Below are positions 21,240-23,397 of a stretch of 39,577 bases of DNA, in pieces. Below the pieces are notes generated by a model. The model was not told the DNA's origin, searched no databases, and saw only the letters and a program-made list of their open reading frames with translations. The stretch lies in the sequence record MZ648215.1; one strand, 5' to 3'. Each line of letters starts with the position of its first letter. Within the stretch, counting starts at the first letter, position 1. This DNA comes from Escherichia phage vB_EcoP_IMEP24. A program made the translations under genes and the position numbers.

Positions 21240-21262
21240 ACTAAACTATCACTATAGGGAGA
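21240..21262 (+). promoter_or_regulatory. Phage RNAP promoter (phi10-like, full consensus)
   Basis: ctaaactatcactatagggaga; +1 G at 21257; transcript 5' end can form AGGGA/TCCCT stem. Confidence 0.9.
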
Positions 21263-21364: not shown

Positions 21365-22408
21365 ATGGCAAACGTTCCGGGTCAGAAAATTGGTACAGAC
21401 CAAGGTAAAGGCAAATCCAGCTCCGACGCTCTTGCGTTGTTCCTGAAGGTCTTTGCTGGTGAAGTCCTGACCGCATTCACTCGCCGCTCTGTAACTGCTG
21501 ACAAACATATTGTCCGTACCATTCAGAACGGTAAGTCTGCTCAGTTCCCGGTCATGGGTCGCACCTCTGGTGTGTATCTGGCTCCTGGTGAGCGACTGTC
21601 CGATAAGCGTAAAGGTATCAAACATACCGAGAAAGTGATTACCATTGATGGTCTGCTGACTGCCGATGTGATGATTTTCGACATTGAAGACGCGATGAAC
21701 CACTACGACGTGGCTGGCGAATATTCCAACCAGTTGGGTGAAGCTCTGGCTATCGCTGCTGATGGTGCTGTGCTGGCTGAAATGGCTATCCTGTGTAACC
21801 TCCCGGCTGCATCCAACGAGAACATCGCTGGTCTGGGTACTGCGTCCGTACTGGAAGTTGGTAAGAAAGCTGACCTCGACACCCCGGCTAAACTGGGTGA
21901 AGCAATCATCGGTCAACTGACCATTGCTCGTGCGAAGCTGACCTCCAACTACGTTCCTGCTGGCGACCGTTATTTCTACACCACGCCGGACAACTACTCT
22001 GCAATCCTCGCGGCTCTGATGCCGAACGCTGCTAACTATGCTGCGCTGATTGACCCAGAGACTGGTAACATCCGTAACGTGATGGGCTTCGTTGTTGTTG
22101 AAGTTCCGCATCTGGTACAGGGTGGTGCTGGTGAGACCCGTGGTGCTGATGGTATCACTATCGCTTCCGGCCAGAAACACGCATTCCCGGCAACTGCTGG
22201 TGACGACGTTAAAGTTGCTATGGACAACGTTGTGGGTCTGTTCTCTCACCGTTCTGCTGTGGGTACTGTGAAACTGCGTGACTTGGCGCTGGAACGTGAC
22301 CGTGACGTAGATGCTCAGGGCGACCTGATTGTTGGTAAATACGCTATGGGTCACGGTGGTCTGCGTCCTGAAGCGGCTGGCGCACTGGTTTTCAGCCCAG
22401 CGGCGTAA
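21365..22408 (+). CDS. Major capsid protein 10A
   Basis: ALFLKVFxGEVLTAF, SAQFPV, IKHTEKVITIDGLLTADV, DIEDAMNHYDV, LMPNAANYAALIDPE, RNVMGF, HRSAVGTVKLRDLALER, KYAMGHGGLRPEAAG; collinear with T7 gp10A. Confidence 0.98.
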   Translation: MANVPGQKIGTDQGKGKSSSDALALFLKVFAGEVLTAFTRRSVTADKHIVRTIQNGKSAQFPVMGRTSGVYLAPGERLSDKRKGIKHTEKVITIDGLLTADVMIFDIEDAMNHYDVAGEYSNQLGEALAIAADGAVLAEMAILCNLPAASNENIAGLGTASVLEVGKKADLDTPAKLGEAIIGQLTIARAKLTSNYVPAGDRYFYTTPDNYSAILAALMPNAANYAALIDPETGNIRNVMGFVVVEVPHLVQGGAGETRGADGITIASGQKHAFPATAGDDVKVAMDNVVGLFSHRSAVGTVKLRDLALERDRDVDAQGDLIVGKYAMGHGGLRPEAAGALVFSPAA

Positions 22409-22539
22409 GCACCTTTAGCCAACCTAACGTCGCTACAGTAGCGGCTGCACCTGAAGAGGAGACCCTAACTCCTCAACAGAAAGCTGCGCGTACTCGTGCT
22501 GCGAACAGGGCCGCTAAACTGGCTGAGTCCAACAACTAA
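21365..22539 (+). CDS. Minor capsid protein 10B via programmed -1 frameshift at GGTTTTC (22387-22393)
   Basis: -1 frame is open from 22372 to stop at 22537-22539 and reads ..KAARTRAANRAAKLAESNN; slippery heptamer sits in the VF codons at the 10A C-terminus, as in T7. Confidence 0.65.
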
Positions 22540-22545
22540 TTGAAA

Positions 22546-22582
22546 CCCCTTGGGTGCCTTCGGGTGCTTGAGGGGTTTTTTT
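22546..22582 (+). terminator. Rho-independent terminator (Tphi equivalent)
   Basis: CCCCTTGGGTGCC-TTCG-GGTGCTTGAGGGG stem (13 bp incl. G.U pairs, tetraloop) followed by T7 run; resembles T7 Tphi. Confidence 0.9.
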
Positions 22583-22603
22583 GCTTAAAGTGAGAGGAGA
22601 CTT

Positions 22604-23170
22604 ATGGCTCAATACATTCCACTGAATTCTAACGATGACTTAGACGCCATCAACGATATGTTAGCAGCTATCGGTGAACCAGCAGTCCTACAGCTTGACG
22701 AGGGGAACGCTGACGTCTCGAACGCTCAACGTATCCTGCATCGTGTCAATCGTCAGGTCCAAGCTAAAGGCTGGAACTTTAACATCAACGAAGCTGCTGT
22801 CCTGACACCTGATGTCCAAGACAATAGGATTCGATTCTTGCCGTCATACCTTCGTGTAATGACCGCTGGGGCCACCAGCTACTACAGCAACATGGGTGGA
22901 TACCTGTACGACCTGTCCACTCAGTCAACCACTTTCACCGACCCCATCACGGTAGAGCTTGTGGAGATGAAGCCATTCTCCGAGATGCCTGTGGTCTTCA
23001 GGGACTACATCGTCACTAAAGCTAGCCGTGAGTTCAACGCTAAGTTCTTCGGTAGCCCAGAGTCAGAGCTATACCTTCGTGAGCAGGAAGCAGAACTCTA
23101 TCAGCAGGTTATGGAGTACGAGATGGACACTGGTCGCTACAACATGATGTCTGACATCGGGAGGGACTAA
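22604..23170 (+). CDS. Tail tubular protein A (T7 gene 11)
   Basis: IGEPxV, ANAxRILxxxNRQxQxxGWxFNI, YIVTKASRxFN, FFGxPE, MEYEMD match T7 gp11. Confidence 0.92.
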   Translation: MAQYIPLNSNDDLDAINDMLAAIGEPAVLQLDEGNADVSNAQRILHRVNRQVQAKGWNFNINEAAVLTPDVQDNRIRFLPSYLRVMTAGATSYYSNMGGYLYDLSTQSTTFTDPITVELVEMKPFSEMPVVFRDYIVTKASREFNAKFFGSPESELYLREQEAELYQQVMEYEMDTGRYNMMSDIGRD

Positions 23171-23397
23171 TGGCTAGTCACAACCTGAAGATTCACCGCC
23201 AGCACTTTGGTCCGGTACAGCTAGGTCTAAAGACAGCAGAGCTGAGACTTAACGACCGGGACTTTAAGGTTGGCGATTGGCTTATCCTGAATGAGTGGGA
23301 CAACGGGTATACTGGACAACAGGTAGCGCGTAAGGTTGTCCACATTGCTGACGTTGGTGACATCGCTGAAGGATACGTCCTAATGAGTATGATTTAA
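23170..23397 (+). CDS. DUF3850/ASCH-like small protein (75 aa)
   Basis: HxLKIxxxxFxxVxxGxKTxExRxNDRDFKVGDWLILNEW pattern recalled for DUF3850; start overlaps gene 11 stop (TAATG); RBS gggaggg. Confidence 0.6.
   Translation: MASHNLKIHRQHFGPVQLGLKTAELRLNDRDFKVGDWLILNEWDNGYTGQQVARKVVHIADVGDIAEGYVLMSMI

Follow-up and report, generated by a model that had tools for sequence, protein, structure and literature searches.

The capsid gene and the -1 frame at its 3' end

The window, by which we mean the whole stretch of 39,577 nucleotides that was analysed (Escherichia phage vB_EcoP_IMEP24, MZ648215.1), is the genome of a T7-group podophage of the genus Kayfunavirus (K1F-like). The closest genomes over its first 25 kb are Kayfunavirus relatives with 92.5-94.3% identity, and in the capsid-gene region the nucleotide identity is 98.2% to Escherichia phage TM1 and 96-98% to many Kayfunavirus records. 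Gene 10A is an ORF of 347 amino acids (36.25 kDa) on the plus strand at 21365..22408 and its product belongs to the Pfam family Gp10A-like (PF21703, E 8e-105), so that the gene in question is the Gp10A-like major capsid protein gene of a T7-group phage, as it is in the 10A/10B arrangement of T7. Upstream of gene 10, at about 21240..21262 on the plus strand, there is a putative promoter for the phage RNA polymerase, ACTAAACTATCACTATAGGGAGA, which by its likeness to consensus may be the equivalent of phi10; it resembles the K1F promoter consensus given in the annotation of phage ASO2B and lies in an equivalent place. Downstream, a scan found a Tphi-like intrinsic terminator at 22542..22583 on the plus strand, with a 17-bp hairpin followed by a T run and with the outer stem as in T7 Tphi, and gene 11 starts after it at 22604. 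Within this terminator is the sequence CCCC (22547-22550), which is part of every Tphi-like hairpin. Further along, between gene 11 and gene 12, the plus strand carries a 75-aa ORF at 23170-23397 that is called "hypothetical" in the records of close relatives, while the K1F record has no feature at the equivalent place and K1F gene 12 begins directly at the end of gene 11.

The sequence of interest is the slippery heptamer G GUU UUC at 22387..22393 on the plus strand, the only copy in the window, in which GUU (Val342) would occupy the ribosomal P site and UUC (Phe343) the A site. In the 10A frame this region reads CTG|GTT|TTC|AGC|CCA|GCG|GCG|TAA, which is L341, V342, F343, S, P, A, A and stop, and the start of the heptamer falls in the seventh codon before the 10A stop (22406-22408). 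The -1 frame opens at 22372, directly after a TGA at 22369-22371, and closes at the TAA at 22537-22539; the original prediction gave 22372 as the start of the feature because this is where the -1 frame becomes open. The open -1 frame overlaps the 10A frame over 22372..22408 (plus strand, 12 codons) and a shift must occur within this overlap. Among the slippery motifs in the overlap GGTTTTC is the only one that is conserved in relatives, and the adjoining AGC CCA GCG is variable. After a shift on GTT TTC, the 10B-specific coding sequence is 22393..22539 on the plus strand, which is 48 codons plus TAA with CAG at 22393 as the first codon, and the tail that it encodes is QPSGVSTFSQPNVATVAAAPEEETLTPQQKAARTRAANRAAKLAESNN. 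The predicted 10B protein, join(21365..22393,22393..22539), has 391 amino acids and a mass of 40.88 kDa, and its residues 1-343 are common with 10A. Neither ATG nor GTG nor TTG occurs anywhere in the -1 ORF (22372-22539) and therefore the tail can be reached solely from the 10A frame. Thus, what lies here is a -1 ORF that has no start of its own, overlaps the end of 10A and runs up to a Tphi-like terminator. The original prediction had placed G GTT TTC at 22387-22393 in the Val-Phe codons seven before the 10A stop, which is exact to the base, and had the -1 frame open for 48 codons past the site with a tail sequence that agrees with ours letter by letter. It had also put the end of the ORF 6 nt before the terminator, and this agrees within the definition of where a terminator begins, as 2 nt separate the tail stop from the first base that is paired and 7 nt separate it from the CCCC core.

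Neither the heptamer nor the open frame is improbable when taken alone and for that reason the case rests on relatives. GGTTTTC occurs once on the two strands of the 39.6-kb window as against 4.0 +/- 2.0 expected from dinucleotide shuffles, and by simple arithmetic, (61/64)^50, a 50-codon open frame arises by chance with p of about 0.09. Four things are above chance: the site lies at codons homologous to those of T7, the tail shows homology, it evolves in the manner of a coding sequence, and in relatives site and tail are found together. The single occurrence of GGTTTTC might hint that shifty heptamers are avoided elsewhere in the window, but alone this count is not significant. The length of the -1 overhang across the genes of the window was also tried as a statistic and was found to be uninformative, as downstream genes often occupy that frame. 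At the protein level, the predicted tryptic junction peptide of 10B has about 50 residues, YAMGHGGLRPEAAGALVFQPSGV...TLTPQQK, as the Arg-Pro bond is resistant, and the remaining predicted tryptic peptides of the tail, AAR, TR, AANR, AAK and LAESNN, are short.

Homology, selection and predicted form of the tail

BLASTP aligned the tail of the window with that of T7 10B over 36 residues, at 64% identity and E 2e-11, and the tail also matched two PHROG "head protein" families, phrog_12582 (E 3.7e-10) and phrog_20538. When the 48-aa tail was used as a tblastn query against the phage collection there was no match, for which a short, low-complexity query is the likely cause, and the comparison of tails was done locus by locus in place of tblastn. 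The alignment of the window and T7 tails gives the common core LTP(A/Q)Q(K/E)AARTRAAN(K/R)A. In the window the conserved core, LTPQQKAARTRAAN, is encoded at 22465..22506 on the plus strand (tail residues 25-38); it was delimited from the alignment and from further lineages and is part of a predicted basic helix. In the block from the core to the end of the tail, 16 of the 30 differences between the window and T7 are at third codon positions and pN/pS is 0.29. Between the divergent lineages compared (window, L011, L040 and T7) the differences in the core were concentrated at third positions of the -1-frame codons and pN/pS in the tail frame was 0.14-0.46, whereas with the alignment read in either of the remaining frames it was about 0.8-9.6. 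Thus, the tail is under purifying selection and evolves as a coding sequence in the -1 frame. A single-sequence AlphaFold2 model of 10B was poor, with a mean pLDDT of 31.5, and gave no more than a weak hint of a helix at residues 370-389 (pLDDT 54-67); from this model the tail is probably a linker followed by a short basic helix. It was also observed that G|GNN|TAA is found right before the 10A stop in every T7-type lineage (22400-22408 in the window, and equivalents), which gives a conserved Gly-(Val/Leu) in the -1 frame, encoded by GGC GTA in the window, GGA GTA in T7 and GGC TTA in L011, with the -1-frame GTA or TTA overlapping the TAA stop. A possible reason for this conserved Gly-(Val/Leu) is that the linker, or the context of the stop, is constrained.

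For both T7 and T3 the gene 10 frameshift has been described (Condron 1991, by way of papers that cite it), and in T7, according to PMC1635266, about 10% of translations undergo a -1 shift and give the 10B protein. The T7 genome record annotates 10B as a joined CDS. In T7, as in the window, G GUU UUC is at the homologous Val-Phe of ...GGLRPEAAGA(L/V)VF... and the 10A stop follows within a few codons; the tail runs to just short of a CCCC-containing Tphi, and the core ...ETLTP(A/Q)Q(E/K)AARTRAAN(K/R)A... is homologous. The two differ in that the T7 tail has 56 residues compared to 48 in the window, with a linker part that cannot be aligned, in that the 10A stop is 9 nt after the heptamer in T7 and 12 nt in the window, and in that the terminator CCCC is more than 200 nt downstream in T7 and 154 nt downstream in the window. 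The likeness to K1F is closer, as the genus, the heptamer and the terminator are the same and 47 of the 48 tail residues are identical, with an A to D change at one position. In K1F a "-1 translational frameshift ... addition of 44 triplets" has been described (Moller-Olsen et al. 2018, PMC6277420), and this net addition equals the 391 residues of 10B minus the 347 of 10A in the window. In the same work the phage K1Fg10b::gfp, in which gfp was fused to the end of the -1 ORF, gave stable, fluorescent particles (PMC6277420). K1F is, however, a different phage, and the database genomes nearest to the window are about 94% identical over 25 kb.

Other known systems resemble the site in the window in part. 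In T3 and phiYeO3-12 the orthologous capsid gene also has a -1 shift at its 3' end that yields a minor capsid protein, but it takes place at C CCA AAG (Lys slippage), adds an unrelated Big_2 Ig-like tail of about 86 residues and has its terminator far downstream; the window has neither the T3 site nor a Big_2 tail, since AAAG is absent from its overlap and its tail gave no Big_2 match. Big_2 matches were found in the tails of T3, L027 and L046. In Kluyvera phage Kvp1, which belongs to another genus, slippage is likewise on a poly-U (Phe) sequence at the capsid gene's 3' end, and 10B was confirmed by mass spectrometry with the shift at TTTTCA (PMC2579914). With the canonical X XXY YYZ sites of dnaX, IS elements and retroviruses the heptamer of the window shares the logic of tandem slippage, as the A-site U UUC fully re-pairs, but its X XX is G GU and the re-pairing in the P site is imperfect.

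Slippery sites and tails among relatives

For this comparison we fetched 78 loci whose capsid relatives were 99-44% identical, and a second scan gave 80 more. Scoring covered 78 loci, drawn from the window, six GenBank loci and the 78 IMG/VR loci, with gene 11 as the downstream landmark. A T7-type N GTT TTY (U UUY) site was followed by a real -1 tail in 34 loci and stood without a tail in only one (L010). The T3-type A AAG site had a real -1 tail in 11 loci and none in 2, and all 30 loci without a slippery site were also without a tail. The tail was therefore present in 45 of the 48 loci with a slippery site and in 0 of the 30 without one. After clustering by capsid this association gave Fisher p values from 9e-8 (36 clusters) to 0.005 (13 clusters). 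New loci from the second scan replicated it, in that 25 had a U UUY site with a tail and one had a truncated tail, and all four loci that lacked a site lacked a tail. Thus, the slippery site and the tail are gained and lost together among relatives.

In the relatives that keep Val-Phe and have no T7-type tail the Val codon is GTC, GTA or GTG and never GTT, although GTT makes up about a third of the Val codons in the same genes. With GTC, which most relatives without a tail have at this position, the A-site codon in the -1 frame is CUU and no longer UUU, and this is expected to stop slippage. In all tail-bearing T7-type relatives, on the other hand, GTT TTC is invariant and the first base of the heptamer is G, A or C. 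Because GTT TTC is fixed while the first base varies, the essential element would seem to be re-pairing in the A site, from U UUC to UUU, as judged from this pattern of conservation.

Broken tails behind an intact slippery site were seen in L010, L018 and L049 and also in L124 and L138. In the sole U UUY exception among the 78 loci, L010, one nucleotide of the TAA stop is deleted (at about 2240), the L018 tail switches frame midway, and those of L049 and L138 have premature stops. These loci are either sequencing errors or phages that are null for 10B, and the latter would fit with PMC3276506, in which gp10B is reported to be dispensable in T7 and T3. Selection for the tail is therefore not absolute, given that natural broken tails exist and that gp10B is reportedly dispensable in those two phages.

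The tail is not of one kind. Kayfunavirus capsids that are 93-99% identical to that of the window have unrelated -1 tails at the same GGTTTTC, namely a domain of about 95 amino acids (type b; phrog_7473, function unknown, no Pfam match) in L012, L014-L024, L075 and L076, and a more distant relative with 78% capsid identity, L027, has a Big_2 tail. The 48-aa basic helix of the window (type a), the phrog_7473 domain and Big_2 have a common left junction, made up of the 10A stop and a linker of the QPSGV.TTF kind; in types a and b the right junction, AAC TAA TTG plus the terminator, is common as well. These common junctions suggest, from comparison of the loci, that cassettes are exchanged by recombination. 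It is conceivable, and we hold this at slightly less than an even chance, that the stretch from the 10A stop to Tphi behind a fixed U UUC or A AAG serves as an exchangeable display slot whose copy number is set by the frameshift efficiency; for the window, this adds nothing beyond its T7-type cassette.

Two other kinds of capsid extension were encountered. In an environmental T7-like sequence (L085:1248-2681, on the same contig as L046; also L086 and L062) the capsid gene ends with G GTT TTT A, and a -1 ORF of 477 codons, which would give a 475-residue tail, ends just before a terminator hairpin and gene 11. This tail starts with Big_2 and has FEGDSL, GTNN and DGTH motifs (GDS(L)-like and DxxH-like) that are reminiscent of SGNH hydrolases, but an identity as an SGNH hydrolase was not retained since Pfam, PHROGs and a PDB sequence search gave no support beyond the motifs. 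If real, it would be an unusually large, possibly enzymatic and frameshift-dosed decoration on a T7-like capsid. Three loci with 59-64% capsid identity (L072, L073 and L074) have an in-frame C-terminal extension of 30-40 residues and no frameshift, and these extensions end in Ala/Arg/Lys-rich sequence (...ASTRRKAAE, ...AATRNKRQA) that is loosely like the core of the T7-type tail. In these lineages the tail may be fused to every subunit.

Mechanism, alternative explanations and annotation

All of this makes it very probable that ribosomes shift to the -1 frame here in a programmed way, as in T7 gene 10, and that this yields a minor 10B protein. The claim of the original prediction that the locus mirrors T7 10A/10B is thus borne out, with support from the identical heptamer at homologous codons, the homologous tail under selection, the lack of a start for the tail and the co-occurrence of site and tail. 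In the mechanism that we propose most ribosomes would read ...CUG GUU UUC AGC CCA GCG GCG UAA and make the 347-aa 10A, and a minority, with GUU in the P site bound by tRNA-Val and UUC in the A site bound by tRNA-Phe, would slip one base back, whereupon tRNA-Phe would re-pair perfectly with UUU and tRNA-Val would re-pair with GGU at two of three positions. The slipped ribosomes would resume at CAG 22393, add 48 residues and stop 2 nt before the terminator hairpin. The product would be a 391-aa minor capsid protein whose extra part is a flexible linker and a short basic, probably helical segment. 10B would co-assemble into the shell, so that the number of subunits with a tail would be set by the efficiency of the shift. 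We infer by analogy with the experiments on T7 and K1F that this phage produces 10B and builds it into its capsids.

A stimulator is expected, because according to PMC1635266 the bare T7 GGTTTTC in a reporter gave less than 1% shifting compared to about 10% in its native context. The review in PMC5009743 describes the T7 heptamer as of the G_GU type with an unexplained dependence on the terminator CCCC more than 200 nt downstream. In the window, the fold of the 77 nt after the site was no better than that of shuffled sequences (z +0.56), that of +5..+59 had a z of -1.15, and the region 3' of the site had no complementarity to the 5' arm of the terminator (z -0.34), although in the T7 group complementarity between the proximal region and the terminator gave a modest signal. 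In the L011-like group a local hairpin was significant. The window has a hairpin at 22429-22445, but a local hairpin as stimulator did not reach significance there, and the hairpin of the T7 group was not seen in it. RNAalifold found no conserved proximal helix in seven divergent tail-bearing sequences, no SD-like element was found 10-14 nt upstream of the site in the window, and Rfam gave no match apart from a sub-threshold one on the terminator. With no detectable 3' structure and no upstream SD-like element in the window, the site is not of the type in which a canonical heptamer is combined with a proximal structure. RNAalifold did propose a pairing of the heptamer with GAAAGCU (22480-22486) that is kept with G.U pairs in T7, but it was rejected, as a loose complement was present in 212 of 2000 shuffles, both arms are otherwise constrained and a ribosome on the site would exclude the pairing. 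As no stimulator was found in the window, the efficiency of the shift could be low here.

This leads to an alternative in which the heptamer and the tail ORF are kept by descent, the stimulatory context is different and shifting is at background level, so that 10B has no meaningful place in the virion. The absence of any detectable stimulatory structure or long-range pairing in the window would fit with it, as would the low activity of the bare heptamer in the reporter, the reported dispensability of 10B and the occasional relatives with broken tails. A near-silent site does not, however, account for the purifying selection on the tail across lineages, K1F-like ones included, or for the fact that the slippery codon is lost in the lineages without a tail, and the tail in those without the codon. 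Moreover, K1F, in which the site is identical and the sequence downstream of it nearly so, gave fluorescent particles when gfp was placed on the tail (PMC6277420), and we regard this alternative as improbable.

It may also be asked whether the tail is reached by another route, either by ribosomal slippage elsewhere in the 12-codon overlap, for example at C CCA (22397-22400), or by RNA polymerase slippage on the run of four T residues. Any -1 event within 22372-22408 would give a 10B-like product, and T3 does use C CCA AAG, but in the window CCCA is not followed by AAG, and among phages with the same tail CCCA is not conserved (AGCTCA in L002 and ACAGCA in L031) whereas GTT TTC is invariant. 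Polymerase slippage is usually tied to homopolymers that are much longer than four T residues, which counts against this variant. As the mass spectrometry of Kvp1 also put the shift at TTTTCA (PMC2579914), we give such routes very little credence. Even less credible is that the open frame is a chance feature of a non-coding spacer, or an assembly artefact in which a sequencing indel has split one capsid ORF. An open frame of 50 codons is not rare by chance and the heptamer count is not above expectation; however, the two-frame arrangement is found in dozens of independently sequenced genomes, including that of T7 where it is experimentally established, and the homology of the tail at the protein level together with its synonymous-biased divergence has effectively refuted this explanation already. 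The programmed frameshift of the T7 gene 10 type thus remains the reading that we prefer.

The feature is an orthologue of the T7 and T3 frameshift, of which use has been made in K1F; as a system it is already known, and the biological weight of the site in the window is accordingly small. For capsid decoration it may be of modest interest that where the tail has gone the slippery codon has gone too, and that several unrelated cassettes are swapped at one site. For engineering, 10B would offer at its C terminus a natural place for display in low copy number, of the kind used in T7Select and K1F-GFP. In the K1F RefSeq record and the GenBank records of three close relatives that were inspected the 347-aa 10A alone was annotated, and the correct annotation for the window is join(21365..22393,22393..22539) with ribosomal slippage. 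Salmonella phages PRF-SP, STP-SP and CRW-SP and Klebsiella phage P7124 have "minor capsid protein (10B)" as the label of the 347-aa 10A ORF, and Hafnia phage yong1 has "scaffold protein"; records in which annotation oddities were noted are OM867676, PQ133619, MK610268 and MT350292. Finally, the capsid gene of "Enterococcus phage EFA-1" is 97.6% identical to those of enterobacterial Kayfunaviruses, and for this reason its host assignment looks doubtful.
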